From NCBI RefSeq assembly GCF_000195975.1, contig NC_005070.1, forward strand, positions 420,001 to 452,000: a stretch of DNA of 32,000 bases, given 5' to 3'. Positions 702-30,192 of this stretch are shown one piece after another (the first letter of the stretch is position 1; each line of letters starts with the position of its first letter). The notes beneath the pieces were generated by a model. It was not told the DNA's origin. It searched no databases and saw nothing but the letters and a program-made list of their open reading frames with translations. This DNA is from Parasynechococcus marenigrum WH 8102. Lineage in GTDB: Bacteria; Cyanobacteriota; Cyanobacteriia; PCC-6307; Cyanobiaceae. The position numbers and the translations under genes are program-made.

Positions 702-2387
702 TCAGGCCTCCAGCGTTGGATCAATCAGCAACCACCCGGCTAGTGGCGTTCCTTGCAGAGCCAGTTGCTCCCGTAGTTGTTGCAGTTGTTGGCGCTGGGG
801 GGCGCCGGGTGCTGTGACCAGCAGCTGAGTGCTGCAGGTGCGACTGGCGAGCAGGTCGCGGCTGACTAGGAGCTTTCGATTGCCAAGAGCTGCGACGAGG
901 GCCTGCTGAAGCTGCTCAATTTGGTTGTTGGGGAAGTTGCCTACGGGAATCAGAGCGACTGACTGAGCATCAGCGAGGGGACCCTCTGCCAGCAGCTGTG
1001 CTGTGCTGCTCCATTGCTCTGGAGCCATTGCCGGCAGACGCTCCAGCATTGGGCAAGGGAGCAAGGTTTTGAGCTCGTCTTCGCTGAAGACAAGGCCGCT
1101 GCGGCGATCGCGGATCAGGGCGGCGCCACAGCCCAGGACGAGCCCTCCAAACAGTCCCAAAGCCACCATCCGTTTCTTGCGGGGCGCAACTGGCTTGTCG
1201 AGCACAGTGGGGGTTGAAATCAACTCCCATGGATCGGTCTGACGGGCCTGATCGAGCTTGAGGCTTTGCAGCTGCACCTCAAGTTCAGCCAGGGTTTTCT
1301 CGTCCCTCAGTGCCGCCCGCACCAATTCGCGGTGTTTGAGCACCACCTCGCGAGGCCTCGTGAGAGACGCTAGCTGGGCCTCCGCTGTGATCAATTCGCC
1401 TTGCAGCAGTCCGATGGTCTGCTGGTTGATGTAAGCGATCAACCCACTGCGTTCGCGTTGAAGGCGTTGAATCGACTGATCCTGCGGGGTGAGCAGCGCT
1501 GACTGCTGCTGAAGTCTGGTTTCGACGCGCTGGAGCTGTGAGTAGATCTCAGTGTTTGCGGCCAGCTGGGGGGCTTTGTAAAGGGTGGTGTTTCCTGAAC
1601 GTTGTGCTGCAGCAATCCGCTGACGCAGGGCATTCACCTGATTCTGTGCTGCTTCGCGGCTGGCTTCCACAGACCCACCGTTCGTGCTTCCAGTCGCTCC
1701 CGTGGGCATGCCGTCTTGAATGCCAAGCCCATTCGCCAGGGCGTAGGCCTGAGCAGTGCGCATGGAGGTGGCGGATTGCTGGCGCAGCTTGTCGATTTCC
1801 TGTTCGAGGTAAGCCACGCCCTGGGTTAGGCCCCGGCGACGGTCTTTGCCGGAATACTCCTGGTAGGTGCGGGTGATGCGTTCCAGCACCGGCAGGATCA
1901 AATCTTCATCGGTGTCGCGATAGGTCAATGACAACACCGATGTGCCTTTCACCAGTTCAATCTCCAAGCTCCTGGTCCAATCGGTAATCACCCATTTGCT
2001 GACGTCTGCTCCAGCAGCGGCTTTGCTGGCTTTGACAAAGTCGTAGGTGGGCCTGAGCACCGAAGGACTTTCCAGAATCTTGACCTCGGTTACAAGCGAA
2101 CTTTCACCAGCACTCACGCCGGCAAGCCCCGCGAGCATCGGATTGGCTGCAGCCAGTTTTGCCAGACGGCCGCCCCCTACATCCTGGTTTTCCAGCACGA
2201 TCTGAAAACTTCCTTCCCACACCGGTTTGCGCGTGAAGGCGTAGATCCCACTCAGCAGCACCGTAGCGGCGGTGATGCCACCGATCAGTAGCCACTGGCG
2301 CTTGAGGGCTGCAGCAACCTGGCGCAGATCAATCTCGTCGTTGTCCAGCTGCTGGGGCTGAAGCGTCTGCGATGGGCTGCTCGTCAT
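702..2387 (-). CDS. Polysaccharide co-polymerase (Wzz/Wzc/GumC-type chain-length determinant) with a degenerate C-terminal nucleotide-binding-like tail
   Basis: 561-aa ORF. The N-terminus is Wzz-like with TM1 (IDLRQVAAALKRQWLLIGGITAATVLLSGIYAF). A long Q/L/R-rich, coiled-coil-like periplasmic region follows, then TM2 (RMVALGLFGGLVLGCGAALIRDRR). The cytoplasmic tail has no GxxxxGK[ST] Walker A. The start overlaps the stop of the upstream wza-like gene (ATGA). Confidence 0.75.
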   Translation of the reverse strand: MTSSPSQTLQPQQLDNDEIDLRQVAAALKRQWLLIGGITAATVLLSGIYAFTRKPVWEGSFQIVLENQDVGGGRLAKLAAANPMLAGLAGVSAGESSLVTEVKILESPSVLRPTYDFVKASKAAAGADVSKWVITDWTRSLEIELVKGTSVLSLTYRDTDEDLILPVLERITRTYQEYSGKDRRRGLTQGVAYLEQEIDKLRQQSATSMRTAQAYALANGLGIQDGMPTGATGSTNGGSVEASREAAQNQVNALRQRIAAAQRSGNTTLYKAPQLAANTEIYSQLQRVETRLQQQSALLTPQDQSIQRLQRERSGLIAYINQQTIGLLQGELITAEAQLASLTRPREVVLKHRELVRAALRDEKTLAELEVQLQSLKLDQARQTDPWELISTPTVLDKPVAPRKKRMVALGLFGGLVLGCGAALIRDRRSGLVFSEDELKTLLPCPMLERLPAMAPEQWSSTAQLLAEGPLADAQSVALIPVGNFPNNQIEQLQQALVAALGNRKLLVSRDLLASRTCSTQLLVTAPGAPQRQQLQQLREQLALQGTPLAGWLLIDPTLEA

Positions 2388-3580
2388 GGCTGGATATCTC
2401 GATAGATCGAATAAACGGAGTAGAGACCCACAGCGGGGGCTGTGATCTCATTCAGCACCTCAATGCCGGCACTGGCGATGGACTCGCGCAGGCGCACTAC
2501 ATCACCGGCCATCAACACGGGGTTGCGGTAGTCATCTGCGGGGGCGTCGCTCTTGAAGCCGAAGATGCGCCGGTCGATTTCGCCCTCACGGTTGAAGCGG
2601 ATGAACTCCACCTTGCCGTGCAGCAGTTTGGTGCCACCGGCCAGGTCGATCGCCTGCACCAAGGACGACCCCTGCGGCAGCGTCACGGCGCCTGGATTTC
2701 TGACACGTCCGCTGACGTACACCTGCATGAACTGCGGTGTGAGGTTTGTCTGGCCAGCTTTGAGCAGCTGTTCACGCAACACCTCAGGGCTCTTGGCCAC
2801 GCTCACCACATCTCCGTCGAAGAGGCGGATGTTCTGGCTTTCATCGCCGGTGGTGATCAGCGAGAGGAAATTGAGGTTGGTGCGGATGCGACCACCGCCG
2901 GAACTGGCGGCCTGGCGACGGGTCACCTGCACTTTGGAGAGGTCGGTGAAGGGGGTGATGCCCTGGGCAGCACGGATTGCGTCGAACACGGTGGGGAACT
3001 GCAAGCCAAAGGTGCTGAGGCCGCCTCCACTGGTTATCGCCGTGGCACCTCCGGGGACCTGATTCAGGCCGCCGCGCGACGTTCCTGGGGCAGACAGGCC
3101 ATCCAAGGTGGTCTGCTCGGCGGATTCCGAAATACGCTGAAGTTCATTGTCTTTACTGAGGGAGTAGTACCCGGGACGTTTGACCTCACCGCCCACGTAC
3201 ACGCGAATGGGCCTATAGCGGACTGGACGGATGTACACCTCCGGATCGCGCACGTAGGGGCGGAACTGCTCGGTAAGGAACAGCCGCAGCTCCTCAATCG
3301 TGAGGCCTTCCACGTAGAGGGCTCTCAGCCGAGGCAGGTAGATGGTTCCGTCTGGGCCGATGATGACCCTGCCGCTGAGTTCAGGCAGATCCAGCAGCTC
3401 AATGTCCAGTCCATCACCGGGGCCGAGGATGTAGGCATCAAAGCTGACGCGACTGCGCTCTTCACTGGTGAGGCTGGGAGCCTGACTGGTTTCAGAAGAT
3501 TCAGGCTGAGCTCTCAGCGACAGAGGTGTCAACACCAAGCTGGCTGCGAGTGCTCCGATGGACAGCCAGGACCGAAACAC
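2384..3580 (-). CDS. wza: Outer-membrane polysaccharide export protein (Wza/GumB/KpsD family)
   Basis: 398 aa with signal peptide MFRSWLSIGALAASLVLTPLSLRAQ. It has a Poly_export-type segment (YILGPGDGLDIELLDLPELSG...IGPDGTIYLPRL...LYVEGLTIEEL). SLBB-like repeats are present (VYVGGEVKRPGYY, VYVSGRVRNPGAV). It is coupled to the co-polymerase gene downstream. Confidence 0.85.
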   Translation of the reverse strand: MFRSWLSIGALAASLVLTPLSLRAQPESSETSQAPSLTSEERSRVSFDAYILGPGDGLDIELLDLPELSGRVIIGPDGTIYLPRLRALYVEGLTIEELRLFLTEQFRPYVRDPEVYIRPVRYRPIRVYVGGEVKRPGYYSLSKDNELQRISESAEQTTLDGLSAPGTSRGGLNQVPGGATAITSGGGLSTFGLQFPTVFDAIRAAQGITPFTDLSKVQVTRRQAASSGGGRIRTNLNFLSLITTGDESQNIRLFDGDVVSVAKSPEVLREQLLKAGQTNLTPQFMQVYVSGRVRNPGAVTLPQGSSLVQAIDLAGGTKLLHGKVEFIRFNREGEIDRRIFGFKSDAPADDYRNPVLMAGDVVRLRESIASAGIEVLNEITAPAVGLYSVYSIYRDIQP

Positions 3581-3658
3581 GTGCTTTGTTCTGATAAGCG
3601 TGAAGCTATGGCTTGAAGGGCTGTGATCAAGCCCTCAGTGGGCAGGCTTTTGGCTGGC

Positions 3659-4696
3659 TCAGGTATATCGCTCAGGGTTCTGCTGCTGCCAGGCCCAGCC
3701 GTCTCGGCAGATGTCTTCAAGGCTTCGCTGGGTGCGCCAGCCCAGGCGCTGAGCGGCATCGCCAGGCCGACGGTCCGTGATCGTGTTGGGGATGGAACGG
3801 CCGCTGGCGGCTTGCATGGACTGCACCACCTCCAGGACGGACTGTCCTTGGCCGCTGCCCAGGTTGAGGGTGACCATTTGTGTCGCTTCCGCCAGCAGGC
3901 AGTCCAGGGCGGCGCGGTGGCCATCCGCGAGATCCATCACGTGGATGTAGTCACGCACACCGGTGCCATCGGGGGTGGGCCAGTCGCCGCCGAACACCTG
4001 GAGCTGTTCTCTGCGTCCGTTAGCCACCTGACTCACGAAGGGGAAGAGGTTGTTGGGAATGCCCAGCGGGTTTTCGCCAATGCGGCCGGACGGATGGGCC
4101 CCGACGGGGTTGAAATAGCGCAAGCAAGCGATCCGCCAGGCGTCCTGAGCACTGGCATGCAGATCGGACAGCATTCGCTCAACAGCGGCCTTGGTGTGGC
4201 CGTAGGGGTTGATCGGAGAAATGGGAGCTGTCGCAGGGATCGGAACGGTTTCTGGATTTCCGTAGACCGTAGCGCTGCTGCTGAAGACAAGGGTGTGGCA
4301 GCTATGGGCATCCATGGCCTCCAGCAGGCAGCGACTGCCGTTCAGGTTCACATCCCAGTAGTGAAGTGGCTTCTCCACGGACTCTCCAACAGCTTTGAGG
4401 CCGGCGAAATGGATTACGGCATCAATCCCAGACGGCGCCTTGGTGAAGGCTTGCTCAAGATTCCTGGGGCTGCGGATGTCTCCTTGCATCTGCCGCAACC
4501 GAGGAGCGGCCGCAGGTCCAGCGAGCTCGCGCACACGCTCAAGTGCGATCGGGCTGCTGTTGCTGAAATCGTCGAAGACCAGCAGCTCATGGCCCGCCTC
4601 CAGCAGCACCAGGCCGGTATGGCTGCCGATGAAGCCTGCCCCGCCTGTAATCAAGAGCTGCGCCAATGGGTTGGTAACGCAGTGGACTCCCATCAT
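3659..4696 (-). CDS. galE: UDP-glucose 4-epimerase
   Basis: Rossmann motif LITGGAGFIGSH, catalytic YGHTK (YxxxK) and the GalE signature NPVGAHPSGRIGE. The track ORF extends to 4831, but the Rossmann motif follows the MM pair at 4696/4693 after about 15 residues. That gives the usual ~345-aa length, so I place the start at 4696. Confidence 0.9.
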   Translation of the reverse strand: MMGVHCVTNPLAQLLITGGAGFIGSHTGLVLLEAGHELLVFDDFSNSSPIALERVRELAGPAAAPRLRQMQGDIRSPRNLEQAFTKAPSGIDAVIHFAGLKAVGESVEKPLHYWDVNLNGSRCLLEAMDAHSCHTLVFSSSATVYGNPETVPIPATAPISPINPYGHTKAAVERMLSDLHASAQDAWRIACLRYFNPVGAHPSGRIGENPLGIPNNLFPFVSQVANGRREQLQVFGGDWPTPDGTGVRDYIHVMDLADGHRAALDCLLAEATQMVTLNLGSGQGQSVLEVVQSMQAASGRSIPNTITDRRPGDAAQRLGWRTQRSLEDICRDGWAWQQQNPERYT

Positions 4697-4932
4697 CCAA
4701 CGGGCTGACCAGCTAATGGCTTCAGCGCCTTCCTTCCATTGGAATAATTGGACTTTCCTGAGTGGGGAACTCTGGTTCCGATCGGCTGAACCTGTCGATG
4801 CCAATGCGAGCAGGACTGAGTTCCATGACAAACTCCGTTGATAACGTCACAGTCGAGTTGATCGAGCTCAGCTCTCGACCGCTGTGACTGCAGGCAGCCG
4901 TGGTGTGCCTGCAAGACGTTCTGAAAGATTTC
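4697..4932. promoter_or_regulatory. Divergent intergenic region between galE (minus) and gmd (plus); presumed bidirectional promoter region
   Basis: This is inferred from gene arrangement only. I could not pick out convincing -10/-35 elements by eye. Confidence 0.3.
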
Positions 4933-6096
4933 ATGCCCTCCTCCGCCACTAGAGCTGCCAAAACTGCCCTGATCACAGGCATTACAGGCCAAGACGGCAG
5001 TTACCTGGCGGAGCTTCTGCTGGAGAAGGGCTATTTGGTGCACGGGATCAAGCGCCGGGCCAGCAGCTTCAACACCACTCGGATCGATCACCTGTATCAG
5101 GATCCGCACGAGAGCGATCCTCGACTGGTGCTGCACTACGGCGATCTCACCGACAGCACCAACCTGATCCGGATCATCCAGCAGGAGCAACCGGACGAGA
5201 TCTACAACCTTGGTGCTCAAAGCCATGTGGCCGTGAGCTTTGAGGCGCCGGAATACACGGCAAACAGCGATGCCCTTGGCACCCTGCGCATCCTCGAGGC
5301 GGTGCGGATGCTCGGGCTCATAGGAAAAACCCGGATCTATCAGGCCAGCACTAGCGAGCTCTACGGCCTAGTGCAGGAGGTGCCGCAGAAGGAGTCGACA
5401 CCCTTTTATCCGCGCAGCCCCTACGGCGTCGCCAAGCTTTACGCCTACTGGATCACGGTCAATTACCGCGAGGCCTACGGGATGTATGCCTGCAACGGCA
5501 TCCTGTTCAACCATGAGAGTCCGCGGCGCGGCGAGACGTTTGTGACCCGCAAGATCACCCGGGGTCTGGCGCGGATCGATGCGGGGCTGGAGCAGTGCCT
5601 GTTCATGGGCAACCTCGATTCCCTACGCGACTGGGGCCATGCGCGCGACTACGTGGAGATGCAGTGGCGGATGCTCCAGCAGGAAGGTCCGCCGGAAGAC
5701 TTCGTGATCGCCACCGGCCGGCAGGAGTCGGTGCGGCGCTTTATTGAGCTAGCAGCATCCGAACTCGGTTGGGGCAGCATCCAGTGGCAGGGCAGAGGCT
5801 TGCAGGAAACTGGATCTCGCGCCGACACCGGCGATGTGGTGGTGCGTATTGATCCGCGCTATTTCCGCCCGGCAGAGGTTGAAACGCTGCTTGGTGATCC
5901 CACCAGAGCAAAAGAGAAGCTTGGCTGGATCCCCACCACCACCCTGGAGGAACTTGTGGCCGAGATGGTTGCCACGGATCGGGAGGACGCCAAGAAAGAT
6001 GCACACCTCAAACGCAAGGGTTTTGCGGTTGTTGGTTCGATGGAGAACCCGCCTACAAACCCTGAAGCGATCAAAGCGGCTGGAGGCGCAGAGTGA
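4933..6096 (+). CDS. gmd: GDP-mannose 4,6-dehydratase
   Basis: Canonical N-terminus [44 protein letters not shown], plus SELYG and [11 protein letters not shown]. The ATG at 4933 fits the family N-terminus better than the GTG at 4900 listed in the track. Confidence 0.92.
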
Positions 6097-7064
6097 GCCC
6101 CCTGATCACCCCAGCTGACAGGATCTACGTTGCCGGCCATCGCGGTATGGCTGGCAGCGCCATATTCAGAGCTCTGGAACGAGGTGGCTACCACCAACTG
6201 CTGACAGCCAGCCGCTCTGAGCTCGACCTACTCGATGGACCTTCGGTGCAAGCCTGGTTCACAAAGCACCAACCCACGGTGGTGGTTCTGGCGGCAGCGA
6301 AGGTGGGCGGCATCCAAGCCAATAGCAGCTATCCGGCTGACTTTCTGCTGGAAAACCTCAAGATCCAGACACATGTGATCGAAACTGCCTGGCGCTCTGG
6401 TGTGCAGCGGCTGTTGTTCCTTGGCAGCAGCTGCATCTACCCGAAGTTCGCCGAGCAGCCGATCAAGGAGGAAGCGCTGCTTTCAGGTGCTTTGGAGCCC
6501 ACGAACGAGTGGTACGCCATTGCCAAAATCGCAGGAATCAAGCTGTGCGAATCGCTCAGGCGGCAGCATGGTTTTGATGCGATCAGCCTGATGCCCACCA
6601 ACTTGTATGGGCCGGGCGACAATTACCACTCCACTAATAGCCATGTGCTGCCTGCGCTGATTCGCCGCTTTCATGAGGCAACGAAGGCGAATGCTGAGAC
6701 CGTCACGTGTTGGGGCACGGGGTCACCCCTGCGTGAATTTTTGCACGTCGATGATCTCGGGGAAGCTTGTTTGTTTGCTTTGGAGCAGTGGAGCCCAGCG
6801 CCAAGTGAGCTCAGCTATTTAAATGTTGGTACGGGTGTGGACCTGAGTATCCGTGAGCTTGCTGAAGCAGTAGCAATTGCTACTCACTACCAGGGGGAGA
6901 TCTGCTGGGACATCACCAAGCCCGATGGAACTCCAAAGAAACAGCTTGATGTCAATCGACTCAAAGCTTTGGGTTGGAGTTCGCGAATTCCTTTGGCAGA
7001 AGGTTTGGCTAGGACAGTGGAGATATTCCGGCATGAGCTAGCTCAACAACTAGTTCGACTTTAG
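6093..7064 (+). CDS. fcl: GDP-L-fucose synthase (GDP-4-keto-6-deoxy-D-mannose 3,5-epimerase/4-reductase)
   Basis: [35 protein letters not shown] and [13 protein letters not shown] are typical of Fcl/WcaG. The GTG start overlaps the gmd stop (GTGA). Confidence 0.9.
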
Positions 7065-7232
7065 CTTTAGAGAATAAAACTGATGAAAATCTCTGAAATT
7101 AAATCTTGCATGAATTCTCCTAGACTTCCTGAGAAATTTATCCAAAAATTTTGTGCTGTCGTGTCAAAAGTTGCCTTGGCTGCTATCTTTCTCAATATTC
7201 TGCTAAATGATTATTCTGTGATCTGAAGACTA

Positions 7233-8855
7233 ATGAGTAATGAAAGAACCTTTAAAATTTTAGATTGCACCCTCCGTGATGGCGGATACTATAATAACTG
7301 GAACTTTAGCGATGAGTTAATAGAAAATTACGTTCGTGCCAGTTTGGCTGCCAAGATTGATGTTATAGAAATTGGATTCCGATCTTCTTTGAATAATAAG
7401 TTCAAAGGGGCATGTGCATATAGTTCAGATTTATTTCTAGAGAATTTACCTTTCTTGAATGGTACTGATATCGCTGTGATGGTTAACGGATCTGAGATCT
7501 GTAGAACTGATTCTATACCGCGCCTATTAGAAAAACTTTTTCCGAAGCCCGCCATATCATCAATTGTTTCAATAGTTCGTATTGCATGCCATTTTTCAGA
7601 ATTATCTAGAGTTTTATCTGCTACACGATGGCTTGCGGATCATGGGTATAAGATATGCATCAATATAATGCAAATATCAGATCGAAAATACGCTGATATT
7701 AAGGAAATAACATCAATGGCTTCTGATTGCCCCATTGATGTTCTTTATTTCGCTGACTCAACCGGATCGCTGAAGCCGGATGACATCTCTAGAATTGTCG
7801 AATGGTTCCGTACTGGTTGGCAGAGAGAACTCGGTATACATACCCACAACAATATGGGAATTGCACTTCAAAATACTTTACGTGCTTATGAAGAGGGTGT
7901 TAATTGGTTGGATTCAACTGTGAGTGGTATGGGCAGAGGTCCAGGTAATGCGAAAACAGAAGAACTTGTCATAGAAACTGAGACTTTACGCGATGGCAAT
8001 GTCAATTACGTGCCACTGATGGCTCTAAGTAGACAGAAATTTGATAAACTCAAAGCTCAGTACGGGTGGGGACCTCATCCATATTATTATTTGTCTGGCA
8101 AGTATGGTATACATCCAAGTTATATTCAAGAAATGATTAATGATGCTCGTTATGACGACGAAGACATCATTGCAGTGACAAATCAATTAAAATCTGAAGG
8201 AGGCAAAGTTTTTAGTCTTGATTCTTTAGACCTCGCACGTCAATTTTATATCGACAAAGCAAATGGATCTTGGTCACCAACTGAAATATTTAATGGTCGA
8301 GAAGTACTGATTTTAGGGTCTGGCCCAGGGGTTCGTGAACATTCATCTGCCCTAGAACTATATATACAAAAGCAATCACCTCTTGTACTTGCACTCAATA
8401 CACAGTCAGCAATCGATTCGTCTTTGATTGATCTTAGAATTGCCTGTCACCCTGTTCGCCTAATAGCTGATGTAGAGGAATACAATCAACTAGCCGAGCC
8501 ATTAATTATCCCAGTTTCTTCACTACCAAAATCTTTAAGAAATGAATTGGCCAATAAAAAAGTTTTTGATTACGGCTTAGGTATATCCGCGAATAAGTTT
8601 CAATGCAATAATACGTATTGCATTATTCCCTCACCTCTGGTTCTCGCTTATGCGCTAGCTGTTGCTACAAGTGGTAAGTCAAAGAACATTCTTTTGGCAG
8701 GCTTTGACGGTTATGCTCCAGGTGATCCAAGAAATGAAGAAATTGAAAATATATTTTTAACTTATTTTAATTCATATCCTAATGCTTTACTCCATTCGAT
8801 AACTTCAACGAATTTTAAGACCATAGCTTCTAAAAGCTTATATGGAATGTTTTGA
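7233..8855 (+). CDS. DRE-TIM metallolyase (HMGL-like / DmpG-type pyruvate aldolase) domain fused to a C-terminal MptE/DUF115-like domain
   Basis: The N-terminus has LDCTLRDGGY (the DxTLRDG motif). It also has GIHTHNNMGIALQNTLRAYEEGVNWLDSTVSGMGRGPGNAKTEEL, which carries the HxH metal site and GxGxxAGN-like motif of the HMGL-like family. The C-terminal ~185 aa carries VLILGSGPG and, about 130 aa later, KNILLAGFDGYAPG. That motif pair recalls MptE/DUF115 (Maf) and Cst-type folds. Confidence 0.6.
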   Translation: MSNERTFKILDCTLRDGGYYNNWNFSDELIENYVRASLAAKIDVIEIGFRSSLNNKFKGACAYSSDLFLENLPFLNGTDIAVMVNGSEICRTDSIPRLLEKLFPKPAISSIVSIVRIACHFSELSRVLSATRWLADHGYKICINIMQISDRKYADIKEITSMASDCPIDVLYFADSTGSLKPDDISRIVEWFRTGWQRELGIHTHNNMGIALQNTLRAYEEGVNWLDSTVSGMGRGPGNAKTEELVIETETLRDGNVNYVPLMALSRQKFDKLKAQYGWGPHPYYYLSGKYGIHPSYIQEMINDARYDDEDIIAVTNQLKSEGGKVFSLDSLDLARQFYIDKANGSWSPTEIFNGREVLILGSGPGVREHSSALELYIQKQSPLVLALNTQSAIDSSLIDLRIACHPVRLIADVEEYNQLAEPLIIPVSSLPKSLRNELANKKVFDYGLGISANKFQCNNTYCIIPSPLVLAYALAVATSGKSKNILLAGFDGYAPGDPRNEEIENIFLTYFNSYPNALLHSITSTNFKTIASKSLYGMF

Positions 8856-9603
8856 TGATTCTTCTAGCATGAAAGTCTGCGTTGTAATTCCTGCACGATA
8901 TTCATCATCTCGTTTTCCCGGGAAGCCCTTAGTCAACTTATTATATAAACCGATGATTATATGGGTTGCGGACATAGCAGCCCGTGCGGTTGGTATTGAG
9001 CATGTTTATGTTGCTACTGATGATACTCGCATAGCAGATGCCGTTACTTCATATGGATATAAATTCATAGAAACAAGTCCTCATGCTCTTACAGGTACAG
9101 ATCGTGTTGCTGAAGCCTCTAAACAAATAGATTATGATATTTACATTAATGTGCAGGGAGATGAACCAACGATTGACCACTTGGAAATTTTAAAATGTAT
9201 TCAACTGAAGAAAGAAAACTTTGATTGCGTTGTTAATGGATATTGCACCATCAGCACTAACTCAAACCCTTCCTCCAAAAACATCCCTAAGGTTGTCAAG
9301 ACAGAGAAAAACAGATTAGTTTATATGTCGCGCTCATTAGTTCCAGGCTTTAAAGACCTCAACATTATGCCTAAAGAATACTTAAAACAAGTGTGTATTT
9401 ATGGGTTTAGTTTTGAAGAGCTTCAGTTATTTAGTAATTATGGCCGTAAAAGCTTGTTAGAGCAGTCTGAAGATATCGAAATACTACGCTTCTTGGACCT
9501 GGGAAAACAAGTGTTAATGTATCAGTGTGCAAAAGAAAGCCTGGCTGTTGATGTTCCAAGTGACATCCAAATTGTTGAGGATTACCTTCAGCCCAATAAA
9601 TGA
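8842..9603 (+). CDS. KdsB-family cytidylyltransferase (CMP-3-deoxy-ulosonate synthetase-like)
   Basis: VVIPARYSSSRFPGKPL...KPMIIWV...TGTDRVAEA...INVQGDEPTI closely follows the KdsB pattern (IPARYxSxRxPGKPL, GTxR, QGDEP). The more likely start is the ATG at 8869 (MKVCVVIPARY). The ATG at 8842 overlaps the upstream gene. Confidence 0.8.
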   Translation: MECFDDSSSMKVCVVIPARYSSSRFPGKPLVNLLYKPMIIWVADIAARAVGIEHVYVATDDTRIADAVTSYGYKFIETSPHALTGTDRVAEASKQIDYDIYINVQGDEPTIDHLEILKCIQLKKENFDCVVNGYCTISTNSNPSSKNIPKVVKTEKNRLVYMSRSLVPGFKDLNIMPKEYLKQVCIYGFSFEELQLFSNYGRKSLLEQSEDIEILRFLDLGKQVLMYQCAKESLAVDVPSDIQIVEDYLQPNK

Positions 9604-10211
9604 TCAATTCTCTCGATAAGTACAACAGCTTCGTGTTTGACTGTGATGGAGTCGTCCTAAATTCGAATTCGATTAAAACCAATGCATTCTATGATACCGC
9701 CTTGCCTATGGGGCAAGAGATTGCAAATGAGCTAAAAAGATATCATCTAAGACACGGTGGTATATCTCGGTACGAAAAATTTTCCCATCTTTTAAAGAAT
9801 ATTGCGCCAAAGTATAACAAAGCATCAGTGCCAAGTATTGAACATCTTCTATATACTTATTCAAGCATAGTAGAAAAAGCTTTGCTTGATTGTGAAATAG
9901 CAAAGCATCTCGCATTGCTTCGTGAGCGTACAAAGAAAAGCTCCTGGACAATTGTTTCAGGGAGCGACCAATTAGAATTAAGAAAGATCTTTAACGAAAG
10001 AAACATAGATAAGTTATTTGATGGTGGTATTTTTGGAAGTCCTGATAATAAACACCGTATATTAGCCAGAGAATTAAAGAATCGATCTATTCTGAAACCA
10101 GCTTTAATGCTTGGCGATAGTTTATATGATTATGAAGCAGCTTCTAAAGCTGGCTTGGATTTTATCTTTGTATACAATGGTCAGAAGTTGATCAATGGCA
10201 GAGTTTTGTAA
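9600..10211 (+). CDS. HAD-superfamily hydrolase/phosphatase
   Basis: HAD motif I FVFDCDGVVLNSN, motif II IVSGSD and motif IV GDSLYDYEAASKAG. There is an ATGA overlap with the upstream cytidylyltransferase gene. The C-terminus is uncertain (see findings). Confidence 0.75.
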   Translation: MINSLDKYNSFVFDCDGVVLNSNSIKTNAFYDTALPMGQEIANELKRYHLRHGGISRYEKFSHLLKNIAPKYNKASVPSIEHLLYTYSSIVEKALLDCEIAKHLALLRERTKKSSWTIVSGSDQLELRKIFNERNIDKLFDGGIFGSPDNKHRILARELKNRSILKPALMLGDSLYDYEAASKAGLDFIFVYNGQKLINGRVL

Positions 10212-10358
10212 AAAAAAATCAACTTCCTTATATTGAATGCCTATCCAATCTTCTGCCATAGTGCCTTCTTGAAATTCTTGAGGTTGATTTAATTGACCAA
10301 TAGCTTTTTGTATCACTTCTTAATTAACTACTTTTATCTTCAAATTTAACCACAACTA

Positions 10359-12161
10359 GTGAATATCTTCTTCTTTTACTTAAATCAATTTGTCAACCAC
10401 CTTCCTCGTGCCCGCCTATTTCAGTTATTGACTGCATTACCATTAATAATCGTTGGTAGCTTTCTTGAAGTCTTTTCTTTGGCTTTAGTCGTTCCATTTT
10501 TAACATCAATATCTTCAGAAGAGATAATAATCAGTAATTCTTCATTAAATTCTTTCATTTCTTGGCTAAACATTTCTACAAATGATGAGATAATAATCAT
10601 CTTAGGTATTTTGTTTGTTTCTGCAGTTATTCTAAGTGGGGTCACAAGACTATATATCATTTGGTTTAGTAACTTGTTGTCAGCAAATATTGGACATGAC
10701 ATGAGTATACAGGCGTATGAAAATACCCTCAAAAAACCTTTTATTGAGCATAAGCTAAGCAATTCTGGCGATGTAATTGCAGCAATTATCACGCATATCC
10801 ATATCACTGTACTAGTAATTAATTCACTATTGACAGCTGCGAGTTCATTCTTTACCGTTCTTGCTGTAGGTATTGGATTGGCAATAATTAATCCAATTGA
10901 AACATCTATAATTGCAGTAACACTGTTTTTGTCTTATTTACTAATAACTCGAATATTTAACAAGCGTGTCGAATATTATGGTAATATTATTGCAGAAAAT
11001 AAGAATAAAAAAATAAAGTTAATACAGGAGAGCCTTGGTGGAATAAGAGATGTTTTAATGAATAATAGATTTAAAGATTACGTGGAATCTTATAATATTT
11101 TGGATTATCAAGAACGAAATTTGCTTGCAAAACTAACGTTTTTGAATAGAACTCCGAGGGTTTTAGTTGAGATCATATTTATAAGTATACTCATCATCGC
11201 TGGATTGATAATAGCAGTTGTTTTTCAAGAAAAACAACTTTTGATACCAACGCTTGGTTTATTTGCACTAGCCTCCCAAAAGTTGTTGCCAAATACTCAA
11301 AATATATTTAATGCCTGGGTAACTGTCAGAAGCTCGAAGGTGCAAATCGATGAGACATTAAAATTACTTAATCAACCTGCATATTCAAATTTTAATGCTT
11401 TAAGCTCACATCAAAATTTAGTGTTTCAAGACTGCATTGAATTCAATTGTGTTTCCTATCAATACCCTAATAACCCTCATGAATCTCTTGCTGACATTAA
11501 TCTTAAAATATATAGAGGCGATAAGATCGGAATTATAGGAACAACAGGTAGCGGTAAAAGCACTTTCATCGATCTATTGATTGCATTGCTGGAACCATCA
11601 AAAGGATCCATTATGATTGATGGTCAAATTTTGGCCGGAGAAATTTCTAGACAATGGCAATCTCTAATATCACATGTACCACAGGAGATATTCCTTTTTA
11701 ACAAGAGTTTGGCCGAAAATATTTCATTGAGCAAAATATATGATTATGAAAAAATTCGAGATGCGGCTGAAAAATCGTTGATTACATCATTGCTCGAGGA
11801 CTGCTTGGGTGAGAATGTACATAAGACTTTAACTGAGAGAGGCAGTAATCTAAGTGGTGGCCAAAAGCAAAGAATAGGGATAGCTCGAGCTATTTATCAA
11901 AATAAGCCAATACTTATTTTAGATGAAGCTACAAGTGCATTAGATTTATATACTGAAGAGTCTATCCTAACTGCACTACGAGAGTCTTCCGTTAAATTGA
12001 CAATAATCATGATCTCACACAACCTTCGGACTTTAGAAATGTGCGATAAAATTATTTGGCTTGAAGATTCCAAACTAGTAGGATATAGCGACTCAAAAGT
12101 AATTTTAAGTAAATACAAAGAGAAAATAGCAAAATTTCGATCTTTCAATAAGACCTCATAA
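10359..12161 (+). CDS. ABC exporter, fused TMD-NBD half-transporter (MsbA/PglK type)
   Basis: The N-terminal ~300 aa is hydrophobic with multiple TM segments. Walker A is GIIGTTGSGKST, the ABC signature is LSGGQKQRIGIARA and Walker B is ILILDEATSALD. The GTG start is the first start codon after an in-frame stop at 10347. Confidence 0.85.
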   Translation: MNIFFFYLNQFVNHLPRARLFQLLTALPLIIVGSFLEVFSLALVVPFLTSISSEEIIISNSSLNSFISWLNISTNDEIIIILGILFVSAVILSGVTRLYIIWFSNLLSANIGHDMSIQAYENTLKKPFIEHKLSNSGDVIAAIITHIHITVLVINSLLTAASSFFTVLAVGIGLAIINPIETSIIAVTLFLSYLLITRIFNKRVEYYGNIIAENKNKKIKLIQESLGGIRDVLMNNRFKDYVESYNILDYQERNLLAKLTFLNRTPRVLVEIIFISILIIAGLIIAVVFQEKQLLIPTLGLFALASQKLLPNTQNIFNAWVTVRSSKVQIDETLKLLNQPAYSNFNALSSHQNLVFQDCIEFNCVSYQYPNNPHESLADINLKIYRGDKIGIIGTTGSGKSTFIDLLIALLEPSKGSIMIDGQILAGEISRQWQSLISHVPQEIFLFNKSLAENISLSKIYDYEKIRDAAEKSLITSLLEDCLGENVHKTLTERGSNLSGGQKQRIGIARAIYQNKPILILDEATSALDLYTEESILTALRESSVKLTIIMISHNLRTLEMCDKIIWLEDSKLVGYSDSKVILSKYKEKIAKFRSFNKTS

Positions 12162-12172
12162 TTTCTCGACTT

Positions 12173-13045
12173 ATGATTGGGATCCATCGTCTTTTTAAGT
12201 TCGCGAAAAAGCTTACTAGATTTTTGTGTCAAAAACTACATGAGAAATCTTCATTGCCATACAATTATTATCAATGGATAGGGATTTTCAATAAGTTTCG
12301 CCCTCTTTATTCATTTTTAGCTGACGCTGAGAAAATTTGCATTGTAAGCAAGGGAGCTTCTTTGGCAGAACTGCCAGATGAAAAAATTTATTTTGAGATT
12401 ACGCAGGCTGATTTAACAATTCTAGTAAGTTCAGTTGATATACAAAATCATCCTGTGTTGTCTAAATTGACTTATGACATGCAGGTAGTTGGAAGAGTGG
12501 ATGAAATTGAGGGTTATGTACCAGTTTTCCCGAAACAAATTTTAGACCATTTTGAAATCGGGGCTCTCTGTGTTAATTCAAATTCCAAATACCTTTCAGG
12601 ATTAGCCCTGTATAGATTTTACAAATTTTTCTCTAAGTTGGGTCTACCCCTTTACTCAACTGAAGGTGGCATTTCTTTCGTTTCAGAAGATGCACGGATT
12701 TATAATGGCAAAGGTTTGACTATCATCCAAAAAATTATTTCCCATTGCCTAATGTCAAAAAAACTTAAAACAATTACATTCTTGGGTGTTGACTTTTATG
12801 GAACAGGTTATTTGGATTCGTTGAGAGATAAAGAAAAAAATGAATTGTCGCTCTTTCCTGAAATTAATACACTATCTACTGACCCCCGAAACAATAGAGG
12901 TATACCACTAATTAGATACTTAATTGCATTAGCGAACTCCCCGAAAATGTCTGTTCAATTGTGCTTCCCAGAAGAAATTGTTAAATTTATTCCACATTTG
13001 TATAAGCGAGACTTTGAGACAGCCAAGAAAATCACCATATTTTAA
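12173..13045 (+). CDS. Hypothetical protein; possible Cst-type (GT42-like) / DUF115-like ulosonic-acid transferase
   Basis: KICIVSKGASLAEL resembles the N-terminal IIAGNGPSL motif of Campylobacter Cst sialyltransferases. KTITFLGVDFYGTGY resembles their YLSGIDFY segment. The same two-motif layout occurs in the C-terminal domain of the 7233..8855 protein. This is motif-level recognition only. Confidence 0.4.
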   Translation: MIGIHRLFKFAKKLTRFLCQKLHEKSSLPYNYYQWIGIFNKFRPLYSFLADAEKICIVSKGASLAELPDEKIYFEITQADLTILVSSVDIQNHPVLSKLTYDMQVVGRVDEIEGYVPVFPKQILDHFEIGALCVNSNSKYLSGLALYRFYKFFSKLGLPLYSTEGGISFVSEDARIYNGKGLTIIQKIISHCLMSKKLKTITFLGVDFYGTGYLDSLRDKEKNELSLFPEINTLSTDPRNNRGIPLIRYLIALANSPKMSVQLCFPEEIVKFIPHLYKRDFETAKKITIF

Positions 13046-13160: not shown

Positions 13161-14051
13161 ATGCTTAAATCTAAAAAACATATGAAGTTTTCCACTATTC
13201 TAAAAAAAATAATTAGAAAAACTTCCCTTGCCTTTGTCAATTGTGTTTTCCCTGCTCCGAATGCTAAGCACGTAGATGCATCAAAAGTAGGTGAATTTAT
13301 TAATGCAACAAGTGGATGTCACTTTCAGTTTAACTACGGTTTGAAGTTAAACTCTGGGGTATCAAATCCTCACATTAGACATCTATCTGTTTGTAACGAT
13401 ATTTTATTCTCATTGGCCTTCAATAGACGACGAGTTAATTTCCTTGAGTGTTGCTGTATGGACGGGTATCTTTCTTGGCGACTGTCTGGGCAAAGATCAA
13501 AATACTTTTTTAATAGCCTGACTGCCAATGATATAGACACTCGTAATATCAATAAAATCATTGCATATAATATTGCATTTGGCATAAATGTGAATCAGAT
13601 ATCTGGCGATATGAATAACCTTGAAGGCCGATATGACATTTGTACTATATTGGGATCAAGTTATTTTCTCGACTATCCTTTGAGTACGCTTAGTAGGATA
13701 ATTGAGAGAAATCTTGCAAAAAACGGAGTTTTATATATTGATTTTAGGTGCCATCCTGAGGATAACTTTCTACCGAGACATATTTTAGCGGACCCAGAAA
13801 GCATAAAGCTTTATACAGAGGGACTTGATAAACCTATAGGTTTAAGATTTGAGTTTTGCCCTGCGTCAGAAGATCTGGCTTTTATCAATCGCCCGGAAAA
13901 ATACACTTGTGGAATATATTATCATTATCGTGATATTTTGAAATTTATAGAAAAACTACCAAGAATTAAAAGTGTAAGGCCTATTTATCTAGAAAATGAA
14001 GAAACTGAAACTTGTTCAGCTACTTGGGTGATCCTTAAAATAACCACCTAA
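13161..14051 (+). CDS. Hypothetical protein (possibly a very divergent class I methyltransferase-like fold)
   Basis: 296-aa ORF in the island frame context, with an AAGGAG about 12 nt upstream. The order of segments loosely matches methyltransferase motifs I, post-I, II and III: VNFLECCCMDGYL, LTANDID, YDICTILGS and LAKNGVLYIDF. The Gly-rich loop is replaced by a Cys-rich one. Confidence 0.45.
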   Translation: MLKSKKHMKFSTILKKIIRKTSLAFVNCVFPAPNAKHVDASKVGEFINATSGCHFQFNYGLKLNSGVSNPHIRHLSVCNDILFSLAFNRRRVNFLECCCMDGYLSWRLSGQRSKYFFNSLTANDIDTRNINKIIAYNIAFGINVNQISGDMNNLEGRYDICTILGSSYFLDYPLSTLSRIIERNLAKNGVLYIDFRCHPEDNFLPRHILADPESIKLYTEGLDKPIGLRFEFCPASEDLAFINRPEKYTCGIYYHYRDILKFIEKLPRIKSVRPIYLENEETETCSATWVILKITT

Positions 14052-14315: not shown

Positions 14316-14945
14316 ATGACTTTTTTTCAAAGGATTACAAACAAACTGAAAAGATCCTTCGGACTGGGTGTCCGCAAAACAGAACCTTGGTTTGAGCTAG
14401 CAGAAGCCGCGCTTATATATAAAGCTGAAAGCTATAAATCATATGACTTAAAGTTGTTAAAACTTACTGGGGTTGAAATTGGAGCCCACAGAGGTAATCA
14501 TGCTGCTCGCATCCTTTCAAGACTTCCAATTTCTTCTCTATGCCTGATCGATCCTTGGTCTGTTTATTCTGGCGATGAAGACTATTTTCAAAATCAGAAC
14601 ATTCAGGAATCCTTTTATTTAGAGACTTGCTCCAGGTTTAAGTCTGATCCCAGGGTAATGATATCAAGAAAATCATCACTTGAGGCTATACATGATTTTG
14701 CTGACTCTTCCTTGGATTTTGCGTATATTGATGGAGACCACTCCTATCAAGCTGTTTCCCAGGATCTCAATCTATGGTGGCCTAAAGTTAAGCACCGCGG
14801 CCTTCTTGTTGGCGATGACTATAAGTTTAAATTCCCAGGAGTCATGAAAGCTATAGAGGAATTTCAAGCACTTCATCAAGTTTCGCTGTATAAACTCGAC
14901 CGTGGGCAATATAGTTTTCTAAAGATTGAGAAGGATTTACTATGA
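14316..14945 (+). CDS. Class I SAM-dependent methyltransferase (Methyltransf_24 / TylF-like type)
   Basis: GVEIGAHRGNHA (motif I-like) and LDFAYIDGDHSYQAVSQDLNLWWPKVKHRGLLVGDDY. The latter is characteristic of the small sugar/macrolide O-methyltransferase-like family. Confidence 0.7.
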   Translation: MTFFQRITNKLKRSFGLGVRKTEPWFELAEAALIYKAESYKSYDLKLLKLTGVEIGAHRGNHAARILSRLPISSLCLIDPWSVYSGDEDYFQNQNIQESFYLETCSRFKSDPRVMISRKSSLEAIHDFADSSLDFAYIDGDHSYQAVSQDLNLWWPKVKHRGLLVGDDYKFKFPGVMKAIEEFQALHQVSLYKLDRGQYSFLKIEKDLL

Positions 14946-15856
14946 CTATGTCATCTTTCAGTAAAGAACATTTGAGCATCTTAAGCTCATCGCCAAGTAT
15001 ACAGGTCTCACACGATCCATTTCCCCATGTAATAATCAGAAATTGTCTCTCAAGTGAAATTTATAACCAATTAGAAAGCTCCTATCCATCTGACAGTTTT
15101 CTCCAAAATTGGCAACCAGAGAGAACTGGCGAGAATGTTCGCCAAAAAGTAGAGTTCCATTCTATTCTCCAAAAAGATGCCTGCTGGGAAGGGGCAGAGA
15201 TTTGGCGAGAGTTTGTTTCCTTACATTTGTCAAATTATTTTTTTCAGCAAGTATTAGATCTATTTAGAAAAGAAATCCTAACTACTTCACCCCTTCTAGA
15301 GACTCTCTTAGGTTGCAGCATTGAAAAAGCTAGGATCTCTACACATATTCCTGATATACCTCTTTCAAAAAAAGATGAAGAAAAAACTATTTTTCTAGAA
15401 GGCGATGTTGGGATAAACACTCCATTAAGCTTGCCTACTTCCGTTCGAGGTCCACATGTAGATGGTATGCAAAAAATATTTGCTGGTCTTCTTTATTTTA
15501 GAAGATCATGTGACTTATCGTCTGGTGGTGATCTTGAATTGTCTTCGTGGAGATACAATCAACAGCCCATCTTTCGTGGAACCATGAGTGTTAATTCGAA
15601 GCATGTTGTCACGAGATGTACAATTCCTTATGCCGCAAATACAGCCATATTATGGGTCAATTCCCCTAATGCCATACATTCGGTCACTCCTCGATCGCCT
15701 TCAAAGCATTCACGTAGGCTAGTTTACTTTAGTGGTCGGGTTGGCACCCAGCATGTTTTCAAACAAGGCTTGTTTCCATTGGCAACAAGAAAATCGTTCG
15801 TTGAGAAAGTTGTTGCAAAGTCCAAATATATCGTAAGAAAAAAATTTTTGCGATAG
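14942..15856 (+). CDS. Putative 2OG-Fe(II) oxygenase-superfamily protein
   Basis: GPHVDG (HxD) followed by LLYFR...SGGDLEL and a distal His in AIHSVTP fits the HxD...H facial-triad layout of prolyl-hydroxylase-like 2OG oxygenases. There is an ATGA overlap with the upstream methyltransferase gene. Confidence 0.55.
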   Translation: MTMSSFSKEHLSILSSSPSIQVSHDPFPHVIIRNCLSSEIYNQLESSYPSDSFLQNWQPERTGENVRQKVEFHSILQKDACWEGAEIWREFVSLHLSNYFFQQVLDLFRKEILTTSPLLETLLGCSIEKARISTHIPDIPLSKKDEEKTIFLEGDVGINTPLSLPTSVRGPHVDGMQKIFAGLLYFRRSCDLSSGGDLELSSWRYNQQPIFRGTMSVNSKHVVTRCTIPYAANTAILWVNSPNAIHSVTPRSPSKHSRRLVYFSGRVGTQHVFKQGLFPLATRKSFVEKVVAKSKYIVRKKFLR

Positions 15857-18288: not shown

Positions 18289-18328
18289 ATCTTATGTTAA
18301 AATTATCCTACTTCCTCTAGATCTTTTG

Positions 18329-19429: not shown

Positions 19430-19438
19430 TTTATTAAT

Positions 19439-24178: not shown

Positions 24179-24566
24179 GAAATTTTAAGTGGCAGCATGT
24201 ATTCACCGACTTTGACTTAATTCTTTTGTGCAGTTAAGCACAGATTGTGCATATTTTCATGTTTCTGATGCTGTAGCTCAAAATTATGGCTTTTCTCGTC
24301 GTATCTGCCATGGAGTAATGACGCTAATGCCATTTTCTCGGCATCTAGGTATGGAATATCCCGGTGATTACTTTGTGATTCTAGAGGCATCATCTAAATT
24401 TCGCCATCCAGTTTATACAAATGATGAGCTATTGTACGAGCTTAATGAGATTTTTTTCAACGAATCGCTCGGTGTATCCAAGCTAAAAGGTTCAATTAGT
24501 CACGATACTCTTGTTTTGGTTGATGTTTCTTTTACTTGCAAGCGATTGAATTGTGAAGTTACTTAA
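24175..24566 (+). pseudogene. MaoC-like (hot-dog fold) dehydratase, apparently interrupted by a 1-nt frameshift at a T4 run (24224-24227)
   Basis: The track ORF 24228..24566 begins mid-domain (LSTDCAYFHVSDAVAQNYGFSRRICHGVMT, compared with the family pattern SGDxNPIHxD...A...GF...IAHG). The missing N-terminus (MRNFKWQHVFTDFDLIL...) is encoded from the ATG at 24175 in another frame, which stops at 24235-24237. Adding one T to the run restores a ~130-aa hot-dog protein. Confidence 0.6.
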
Positions 24567-30189: not shown

Positions 30190-30192
30190 GAC

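Follow-up and report, generated by a model that had tools for sequence, protein, structure and literature searches.

A candidate pyruvate-aldolase route to a CMP-activated ulosonic acid at the edge of a surface-glycan island in Parasynechococcus marenigrum WH 8102

To our knowledge, every characterised bacterial route to a cytidine monophosphate (CMP)-linked keto-deoxy sugar acid, whether 3-deoxy-manno-octulosonic acid (Kdo), Kdn, sialic, legionaminic or pseudaminic acid, uses a phosphoenolpyruvate (PEP)-dependent synthase of the KdsA/NeuB type. The described systems with which we compare our locus are the CMP-Kdo pathway (KdsD, KdsA, KdsC and KdsB, or KpsF and KpsU in group 2 capsule loci), the sialic acid and Kdn routes (GNE kinase, NANS, NANP and CMAS in animals; Kdn-9-phosphate synthase, phosphatase and CMP-Kdn synthetase in Bacteroides), and the DmpG/BphI pyruvate aldolases with their partner DmpF, an acylating acetaldehyde dehydrogenase. 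Here we analyse three adjacent genes in a 32,000-nt stretch of the Parasynechococcus marenigrum WH 8102 genome (NC_005070.1, positions 420,001–452,000; hereafter the window, whose positions serve as coordinates). They encode a DRE-TIM aldolase-like protein, a KdsB/KpsU-like cytidylyltransferase and a hydrolase of the HAD superfamily, and we give about even weight to the reading that this triad provides a PEP-independent route to a CMP-3-deoxy-2-ulosonic acid.

An earlier note on this DNA had placed three co-directional open reading frames (ORFs) at 7233–10211, and the ORF listing and Pfam bear out both the coordinates and the families; the HMGL-like, CTP_transf_3 and HAD assignments all hold in Pfam and NCBIfam. 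The stop codon of the cytidylyltransferase gene and the start of the HAD gene do overlap, at 9600–9603, in the ATGA that the note had pointed out. Its other overlap, at 8842/8855, stands only in part: 8842 is indeed the first ATG of the cytidylyltransferase frame, and since the aldolase-fusion gene stops with the TGA at 8853–8855, a start there would give a 14-nt overlap, but its use as the true start is doubtful. The conserved cytidylyltransferase N-terminus, MKVCVVIPARY, corresponds in the homolog alignment to an ATG at 8869 and, because this N-terminus and the starts of the homologs match that codon, the junction is probably a 13-nt gap instead. Under either start codon the genes are closely packed. 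Scanning 6900–10500 gave fewer promoter-like sites than were seen in shuffled sequences, and no convincing terminator.

The arrangement is not due to chance, as unrelated genomes by the dozen have the identical three-gene order. Scanning species-representative genomes, one for each species, with degenerate patterns, of which a gene can match two, produced at least 589 confirmed matches, that is, hundreds of genes; the locus statistics below are for the best 80 loci together with the window (81 in all). The earlier note had made its proposal depend on the triad co-occurring in the glycan loci of other genomes, and such co-occurrence proved to be widespread. Taxonomically, the best 80 loci span Gamma- and Alphaproteobacteria, Cyanobacteria (Prochlorococcus, Cronbergia), Bacillaceae, Microthrix, SAR11, Bdellovibrionota-like bacteria, Omnitrophota and Elusimicrobia, among others. 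When the ORFs of all 81 loci were clustered, only three families proved to recur, namely, the aldolase, CTP_transf_3 (68 of 81) and HAD (48 to ~55), the usual order being aldolase, cytidylyltransferase, HAD, with the latter two directly downstream of the aldolase. The other genes are variable glycan machinery, including glycosyltransferases, flippases, ABC exporters, sulfotransferases and O-antigen ligase. Within ±8 kb, no NeuB or KdsA homolog was detected in 56 of the 64 loci where the aldolase lies beside a cytidylyltransferase, using a manually entered KdsA query sequence; eight triad loci also have NeuB. KpsF/KdsD does not accompany the triad in most loci.

Two neighbourhoods deserve description. 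On Leisingera plasmids, the triad, annotated by PGAP as "aldolase catalytic domain-containing protein", "3-deoxy-manno-octulosonate cytidylyltransferase" and "HAD family hydrolase", resides in a locus that also has an ABC transporter, sulfotransferases, gmd and fcl. In Bacillus coreaensis (locus L032), a complete KdsB-like/KdsA (417 bits)/KdsD/KdsC (~168 bits) set at 2997–6132 of that locus lies 2–5 kb upstream of a triad that has KdsB-like and HAD genes of its own. This Kdo set is found in a Gram-positive Bacillus, in a glycan locus, adjoined by three paralogous ~270-aa genes of no assigned function, and its KdsB-like gene encodes NGDEP in place of QGDEP.

The 540-aa product of the first gene turned out to be a two-domain fusion, so that its description as an aldolase in the earlier note is apt for residues 1–325 and misses a second conserved domain. 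The N-terminal half belongs to the DRE-TIM superfamily (Pfam HMGL-like, PF00682: E 2.8e-25, 89.6 bits against a cut-off of 29) and contains the three motifs quoted in the note, D11-C-T-L-R-D-G, H203-T-H205 and G232-M-G-R-G-P-G-N239, which are invariant or almost so in 71 homologs with identities down to 35%. R15, D16, H203 and H205, the metal and enolate ligands by comparison with DmpG, are invariant in all 71.

The note had also contrasted DmpG-type aldolases with acetyl-CoA-dependent Claisen condensases, and by profile, NCBIfam and Foldseek comparison the domain groups with the former. Its best NCBIfam model is PRK08195/HOA, with 105.8 bits over residues 3–274 (cut-off 229), and the 4-hydroxy-2-oxovalerate aldolase (HOA) equivalog TIGR03217 scores 86.3 bits, short of its cut-off of 286; the models for the condensases isopropylmalate synthase (IPMS), citramalate synthase (CMS) and homocitrate synthase (HCS) reach at most 68.8 bits with partial coverage, against cut-offs above 400. 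With the family profile, only PDB 3dxi and four 4-hydroxy-2-oxovalerate aldolases score below E 1e-10, and no condensase does. The closest structure both by sequence (E 6e-42) and by fold (Foldseek TMt 0.90) is 3dxi, entitled "N-terminal domain of a putative aldolase BVU_2661", followed by the DmpG-type aldolases 1nvm, 4lrs, 4jn6 and 8ih7. DmpG-type enzymes outrank isopropylmalate, homocitrate and citramalate synthases and carboxyltransferases in sequence as well as in fold, with Foldseek E values of ~1e-16 (TMt 0.75–0.79) for HOA aldolases and ~1e-12 for IPMS, HCS and CMS. By family, the N-terminal half is accordingly predicted to be a DmpG-like class II pyruvate aldolase and, because the HOA equivalog cut-offs are missed by a wide margin, its sequence places it in a subfamily distinct from HOA. 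DmpF is absent from the window and from the 80 related loci.

Relatives of the aldolase domain also occur alone. On the symbiotic plasmid of Paraburkholderia phenoliruptrix (L084), a stand-alone protein of ~340 aa, 32% identical and devoid of the C-terminal domain, is encoded near two SDRs, a phosphoserine-aminotransferase-like gene, a 514-aa HAD-IA protein and a DMT transporter, which makes another pairing of this aldolase type with HAD; a match on a Mesorhizobium plasmid (H6) is a similar stand-alone relative.

The C-terminal half of the fusion is a predicted Rossmann-like nucleotide-binding domain. Pfam MptE-like (PF01973) matches it at E 0.0027 (17.9 bits, short of the cut-off of 34.6) and matches 1 of 13 homologs, and the best hit of its profile among PDB sequences is the archaeal HPPK/MptE protein 8sd5 (E 0.058), at the GREVLILGxGPGV motif. 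AlphaFold2 modelled the full-length protein with a pLDDT of 92 and a pTM of 0.79, and the domain with a pLDDT of 82 alone and ~95 within the full-length model. Foldseek searches with the domain returned SteA (9hmz, E 1.9e-4), MptE (8sd5, E 3.7e-4), the flagellin glycosyltransferase Maf (5mu5, TMq 0.48) and ST8SiaIII, with TM-scores of ~0.4. The domain is about as conserved as the TIM barrel (mean pairwise identity 0.52 and 0.55, respectively) and is almost confined to the aldolase fusion: a search of 1.84 billion sequences yielded 647 representatives at E<=1e-10 and, of those listed, most are ~530–550 aa long with the domain at ~325–540, and most of the shorter ones are apparently fragments. 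Because the domain stays constant while the surrounding acceptors and transferases change completely, we think that it acts on a small molecule and not on a glycan acceptor. Among the proteins most similar to it in sequence and fold is an ATP-dependent pyrophosphokinase whose target is a hydroxymethyl group, a fact that we counted towards our preferred but rather doubtful guess that the domain is a kinase catalysing ATP-dependent (pyro)phosphoryl transfer to a hydroxymethyl group on either the aldose or the aldol product. It might instead sense the CMP-sugar end product for feedback control, as the regulatory domains of LeuA-type DRE-TIM enzymes do, release the aldose by hydrolysing a nucleotide sugar, or be a genuine transferase.

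As far as we know, the characterised members of the KdsB and NeuA subfamilies, to which the second gene product is related, activate 2-keto-3-deoxy sugar acids, that is, 2-ulosonic acids. This is partly restated in a published account (PMC2901514). The protein of the window matches Pfam CTP_transf_3 at E 4.1e-36, and its best PDB match is KpsU (1gq9), the capsule-specific CMP-Kdo synthetase of E. coli (E 9e-39). Among NCBIfam models, the subfamily NF009905 is matched with 292 bits (cut-off 255), and the kdsB equivalog TIGR00466 and NF003948 remain below their cut-offs (130 against 155.2 bits and 145 against 281 bits, respectively). PARYSSSRFPGKPL, NVQGDEP and AVDVPSD align with R10/K19, Q96/D98 and D225 of KpsU, respectively, such that the P-loop Arg and Lys and the catalytic residues are kept. 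The equivalents of Q96, D98 and D225 are described as ligands of two Mg ions and of the sugar O2 (PMC2901514, PMC3149649). Judging from this alignment, the enzyme retains its binding residues for CTP, for the metals and for the sugar O2/carboxylate.

In 38 triad-linked homologs, QVCxY(A/G)F and EDIEILRF replace the HxGxYAY and ESLEQLR motifs of KpsU and of KdsB from A. baumannii; these substitutions lie in the C-terminal domain of KdsB, which is involved in Kdo binding and dimerisation (PMC3149649). We considered the loss of HxGxY and LEQLR as proof of a non-Kdo substrate, but this argument is weakened by L032, where the KdsB encoded beside KdsA, KdsD and KdsC also lacks both motifs. In ~21 loci, about a third, the middle gene is NeuA/PseF-like and not KdsB-like. 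In a neighbour-joining tree, aldolases that are closely related have partners of both kinds, intermingled, and the cytidylyltransferase has therefore been exchanged repeatedly while the aldolase and the HAD protein stayed.

The earlier note had filled the phosphatase slot with the third gene, and the family holds (Pfam Hydrolase, E 1e-10, 42.8 bits against 26.4; HAD_2, E 1e-8, 35.8 against 23.8), although the subfamily is IA and not the C0 type of KdsC and NANP. The nucleophile motif FDCDGV spans residues 13–18, the cap is of type C1, NCBIfam HAD-SF-IA-v1 scores above its cut-off, and there is weak similarity to the beta-PGM/YqaB family; the KdsC and TIGR01670 models gave no match in the NCBIfam scan, the KdsC of L032 reaching 167 bits with the KdsC model, and no close solved structure was found. 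We presume that the protein is a sugar-acid phosphate phosphatase. Of 74 loci, 50 encode a member of the same HAD family between -3 and +7 kb of the end of the aldolase gene, and five more encode another kind of HAD protein. An apparent fusion of a KdsB-like protein with HAD in locus L043 was discarded as an ORF-calling artefact, the HAD ORF having been extended in the wrong frame.

Taken as a pathway, the three genes with their four domains would form a self-contained precursor module that feeds a CMP-sugar to the neighbouring surface-glycan machinery. The aldolase domain would bind pyruvate at its Asp/His/His metal site, and the pyruvate enolate would add to the aldehyde group provided by an aldose or aldose phosphate drawn from central metabolism, producing a 4-hydroxy-2-oxo acid, that is, a 3-deoxy-2-ulosonate. 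The HAD-IA phosphatase would then remove a phosphate ester from the sugar chain; this phosphate would come in with the aldose phosphate or, at a guess, from ATP through the MptE-like domain, and its removal would make the reversible aldol step irreversible, pulling the condensation forward. Finally, the KdsB/KpsU-like enzyme, or the NeuA-like one elsewhere, would let the keto acid, once cyclised, attack CTP through its anomeric C2 hydroxyl, yielding the CMP-ulosonate. What the sequences themselves show are the order and coupling of the genes, their families, the conserved catalytic residues, the wide recurrence of the module, the lack of a nearby PEP-dependent synthase and the interchange between the two kinds of cytidylyltransferase; every chemical step, along with the direction of the aldolase, its substrate and a kinase function for the fourth domain, we infer. 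The product is probably neither legionaminic acid, because the island around the triad has LegB/LegC/LegF-type genes of its own, nor Kdo, because a complete canonical Kdo set sits beside the triad in L032. In its most specific form, the proposal is of an ATP-driven, PEP-independent route to a new CMP-3-deoxy-2-ulosonic acid, different from Kdo and from the known nonulosonic acids, in which a fused MptE-like kinase and DmpG-like aldolase work with HAD-IA and KdsB/NeuA-like enzymes; we advance this form tentatively, as a possibility.

Several observations weigh against a pyruvate-aldolase route. The MptE-like assignment is weak (a Pfam match below cut-off, TM ~0.4), and a CMP-sugar-binding domain of the Maf/sialyltransferase type fits equally well. 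The catalytic His21 of DmpG is replaced by an invariant Tyr19 (RDGSH in DmpG, RDGGY here), so that the chemistry could differ. The likewise invariant His294 aligns with a tyrosine of 4lrs that we take to be Tyr291 of DmpG, assuming a numbering offset, and this weak, low-confidence tail of one pairwise alignment suggests that Tyr19 and His294 may be a swapped acid/base pair relative to DmpG. Binding of a 2-oxo acid at the metal is common to all DRE-TIM enzymes, so that the fold does not by itself fix pyruvate as the nucleophile. Roughly a fifth of the loci (~15), mostly from SAR11 and candidate phyla, have no recognisable HAD gene even though they are not at contig ends. The KdsB-like protein passes the NCBI subfamily cut-off for CMP-Kdo synthetase. 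Six variant loci (L007, L034, L066, L067, L069 and L071) have an additional HpcH/HpaI pyruvate aldolase near the cytidylyltransferase, and this enzyme could be the true ulosonate synthase there. In all of these except L007, an LdpA-like 4Fe-4S/DUF561-like protein is encoded between the aldolase and the cytidylyltransferase, the order being aldolase-MptE fusion, LdpA-like protein, a different HAD, HpcH/HpaI aldolase and a more distant KdsB-like gene; L007, which has no LdpA-like gene, combines the HpcH aldolase with a CTP_transf_3 gene, an SDR and HAD. The aldolase-based entry to a CMP-ulosonic acid that the earlier note proposed is supported in part: it emerged favourably from all the computational checks that were run, and none of them contradicted it, but the scheme as first drawn lacked the fourth, MptE/Maf-like domain and did not foresee a HAD protein outside the KdsC/NANP type that part of the loci do without, the His-to-Tyr exchange or the HpcH variants.

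Part of the same evidence could be accommodated if the ulosonic acid, be it Kdo, legionaminic acid or a relative, were made by other genes and the 540-aa protein were not a synthase at all, its C-terminal domain binding a CMP-sugar to transfer, hydrolyse or sense it and its DRE-TIM domain adding or removing a pyruvate-derived unit. The fold similarity of the C-terminal domain to Maf 5mu5 and ST8SiaIII and its weak match to the Maf-containing Pfam family are compatible with such a tailoring or transfer role, and end-product-binding C-terminal regulatory domains are present in the DRE-TIM condensases LeuA and CimA. Other sources of the sugar acid can be named as well: the legionaminic acid pathway of the window with its own cytidylyltransferase, NeuB in the eight triad loci and the HpcH aldolase in the variant loci. 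Nevertheless, in 56 of the 64 loci no further candidate synthase lies within 8 kb, and the closest matches to the C-terminal domain come from MptE and SteA, not GT42 or Maf. Furthermore, the domain is invariant across lipopolysaccharide (LPS)-core, O-antigen, capsule and Gram-positive contexts with necessarily different acceptors, unlike an acceptor-specific glycosyltransferase, and on chemical grounds an aldolase cannot act at C3–C4 once C2 is locked as a CMP ketoside. We therefore consider this explanation unlikely.

If the product were nonetheless Kdo, the aldolase would join pyruvate to arabinose 5-phosphate or arabinose, the HAD protein would be a Kdo-8-phosphate phosphatase, and the CMP-Kdo would serve a capsule or O-antigen, much as KpsF and KpsU do in group 2 capsule loci. 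The closeness of the cytidylyltransferase to KpsU and to the CMP-Kdo synthetase subfamily, its PGAP name in Leisingera and the ABC exporter that follows the triad in the window all suit this possibility, as do the Kdo-containing polymers reported from marine Halomonadaceae (PMC11766843). Yet in L032 such a triad would be redundant with the adjoining full KdsB/KdsA/KdsD/KdsC set, the protein stays below the kdsB equivalog cut-off, clade-specific substitutions affect its Kdo-binding half, NeuA/PseF-like proteins replace it in ~21 loci, the HAD protein is not KdsC-like, and most loci have no KpsF/KdsD beside the triad; we judge this origin of CMP-Kdo quite improbable. A related idea in the earlier note, that of an ordinary KdsB acting on Kdo made elsewhere, probably does not apply either, given the full Kdo set of L032 and the NeuA-like exchange in about a third of the loci. 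Most improbable of all, in our estimate, is a non-sugar product, whereby a DRE-TIM Claisen condensase or lyase would make a citramalate- or malate-like hydroxy acid that is phosphorylated and nucleotide-activated as a non-carbohydrate glycan substituent. Acetyl-CoA condensases are numerous in the superfamily and give weaker but real matches, and a GT-B protein with a weak Glyphos_transf match, which would suit phosphodiester-linked substituents, is encoded near the triad in Roseovarius and L069. However, the domain lies closer to HOA aldolases than to condensases in both sequence and fold, it has RDGGY where condensases carry the signature RDGEQ, both cytidylyltransferase types are, as far as we know, active just on 2-ulosonic acids, and the CMP ester of a plain alcohol would, by chemical reasoning, be without good leaving-group chemistry for transfer. 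The PEP-independent ulosonate route remains the reading that we favour.

In the window, the triad is the first operon-like unit, at the left edge, of a compositionally foreign glycan island of ~21 kb, with ~35% GC as against ~60% for the genome (Table 1). GC content is ~56–62% up to ~7000 and ~32–42% from there to ~28000, the drop starting exactly at the stop codon of fcl, and it climbs back to 44–50% across the leg genes on the right side of the island; the low-GC stretch, 7065 to ~28000, looks like a horizontally acquired surface-glycan cassette. No tRNA genes were found anywhere in the window. Since the legionaminic-acid-type pathway has its own CMP-transferase, the island is predicted to encode two different CMP-transferases, with the triad constituting an additional CMP-sugar unit.

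Table 1. Genes and domains of the triad and of the surrounding glycan island (window positions)
Feature	Position	Strand	Remarks
Wzz-like gene			upstream of triad
gmd	4900–6096		upstream of triad
GDP-fucose synthase gene (fcl)	6093–7064		upstream of triad
DRE-TIM (HMGL-like) protein ORF	7233–8855	+	540 aa
DRE-TIM barrel and helical "communication" domain	7233–8207	+	residues 1–325 of the 540-aa protein
MptE/Maf-like Rossmann-type domain	8208–8855	+	residues ~326–540 of the 540-aa protein
KdsB/KpsU-like cytidylyltransferase ORF	8842–9603 (likely start 8869)	+	253 aa from 8842
HAD-IA hydrolase ORF	9600–10211	+	203 aa
ABC exporter	10359–12161		downstream of triad
Three methyltransferases, PtmA-like SDR, polysaccharide deacetylase			further island genes
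WbuX-type N-acetyl sugar amidotransferase, then HisH-like and HisF-like genes	18326–20873		WbuX type, 411 bits
FkbH-domain/HAD-IIIC protein	25639–27312		184 bits; preceded by three short or unassigned ORFs (stretch 24228–27312)
Legionaminic-acid-type pathway	27522–32000		right edge of island, DNA of intermediate GC
GFO/IDH/MocA-family oxidoreductase	in 27522–32000		
NeuA/PseF-like cytidylyltransferase	28496–29197		
LegB	in 27522–32000		518 bits
LegC-family aminotransferase	in 27522–32000		495 bits
PglD-like acetyltransferase	in 27522–32000		extends past window end

Other cargo of the island hints at further decoration. The WbuX/HisH/HisF set, usually tied to the acetamidino (acetimidoyl) modification of amino sugars or nonulosonic acids, also adjoins the aldolase gene in L069, and because FkbH enzymes are loaders of glyceryl units, the FkbH-domain gene region may provide a glyceroyl-type acyl decoration. 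Six island ORFs (12173–13045, 13161–14051, 14942–15856, 17104–18288, 20876–21826 and 24905–25642) had no Pfam match and, where scanned, no NCBIfam match, the 304-aa ORF at 14942–15856 having been scanned by Pfam only. By eye, that ORF has the appearance of a 2-oxoglutarate-Fe(II) oxygenase, a 316-aa ORF has a DxD motif, and the 290-aa ORF at 12173–13045 has ICIVSKGASL and GVDFYGTGY motifs reminiscent of sialyltransferase-like enzymes; the last shares a GxDxYxxG-like motif with the C-terminal domain of the aldolase fusion, and neither hhalign nor BLASTP found significant similarity between the two. Long ORFs over the gmd and 2372–3616 regions, mostly antisense (2384–3580, 3659–4831, 4693–5226 and 5741–6197), belong to the overlapping ORFs on both strands at 2384–6197 that are spurious and typical of high-GC DNA. 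A phosphonate route, with an HMGL-like phosphonomethylmalate synthase and a cytidylyltransferase, was dropped as a candidate, no PEP mutase having been found in the island.

Among the related loci, some neighbours recur in subsets. A B12-binding radical SAM gene (~470–630 aa) lies near the aldolase gene in L043, L056, L057, L074, L075 and L076, directly after it in four of the six, the hosts being SAR11, Magnetospirillum, Omnitrophota and the metagenome-assembled genome of a nitrite oxidiser. Unassigned CMP-linked C10 ulosonic acids have been described in Magnetospirillum gryphiswaldense (2026 preprint), and a tie between these and the radical-SAM-adjacent aldolase loci is a speculation of ours. 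In two Marinobacter loci (L016, 9606–10877; L023, 11506–12780), inspection by eye found a 423-aa protein with a sialyltransferase-like motif, IAVVGP..S..G.DIDGYDVVVK, adjoining the triad, along with WaaP/Kdo-kinase-like proteins, a GT4 and an O-antigen-ligase-like protein, which suggests an LPS-core context. In L069 (9661–12973), the module is followed by a large GT-B protein with weak Glyphos_transf and Epimerase_2 matches. A DNA search of 5,426 complete E. coli genomes returned no homolog and so could not connect the module with any O or K antigen of known structure; a phage-collection search gave just one partial, unannotated match, and no characterised member of the family was found in the open-access full-text literature.

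The module is located in hypervariable surface-glycan islands of highly abundant ocean bacteria, whose surface sugars are thought to shape susceptibility to phages and grazers. If our reading is true, a pyruvate aldolase of another fold, with a dedicated nucleotide-binding domain, would represent a second, independent solution to ulosonate synthesis, and genome surveys of ulosonic acid capacity based on NeuB and KdsA would miss these organisms. The sugar would decorate abundant marine bacteria (Synechococcus, Prochlorococcus, SAR11, roseobacters, Marinobacter and Halomonas) as well as some Bacillaceae, and the enzymes would be useful biocatalysts for making keto-deoxy sugar acids and their CMP donors. 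With this proposal, a family labelled "function unknown", for which a structure (3dxi) has been solved, acquires a directly testable hypothesis.

Set against the CMP-Kdo pathway, the triad follows the same end logic of a 2-keto-3-deoxy acid, a phosphatase and CMP activation, and its cytidylyltransferase is a KpsU homolog with conserved catalytic residues. In contrast, it has no KdsA-type PEP-dependent synthase, the DRE-TIM aldolase/MptE-like fusion standing in its place, no isomerase, and a HAD of subfamily IA where KdsC is of the C0 type, and it coexists with a full Kdo set in one locus. The order of kinase, condensation, HAD phosphatase and cytidylyltransferase in the sialic acid and Kdn routes is the one proposed for the triad, about a third of whose loci have a NeuA-like cytidylyltransferase partner; there, however, the condensing enzyme is NeuB-like and uses PEP, whereas that of the triad has an unrelated fold and would use pyruvate, the phosphatase subfamilies differ, and the kinase of the triad is a guess.

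With DmpG/BphI, the aldolase shares the fold, including the helical communication domain (TMt 0.75–0.79), and the same metal ligands and Arg, and both are coupled to a Rossmann-type nucleotide-binding partner, which in the triad protein is fused. It nevertheless scores far below the cut-offs of that family (86 against 286 bits), has Tyr19 for His21 and no DmpF homolog, is set in glycan biosynthesis and not in aromatic catabolism, and presumably runs in the synthetic direction, on a polyhydroxy aldehyde. The Bacteroides vulgatus protein BVU_2661 (3dxi; E 3e-54 to the family profile, TMt 0.90) belongs to the same family, presumably the subgroup of DRE-TIM proteins that CDD lists as "HOA-like, function unknown", but just its N-terminal domain was crystallised, according to the PDB title, and this structural-genomics entry, without an assigned function, offers no functional anchor. 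MptE and the Maf flagellin glycosyltransferases (PF01973) have the GxGP(S/G) nucleotide-loop motif and the Rossmann-like fold in common with the C-terminal domain, which differs in falling under the Pfam cut-off, in its TM-score of ~0.4 and in its fusion to an aldolase. The logic of the pathway is thus familiar, whereas the condensing enzyme and the domain fused to it are not.

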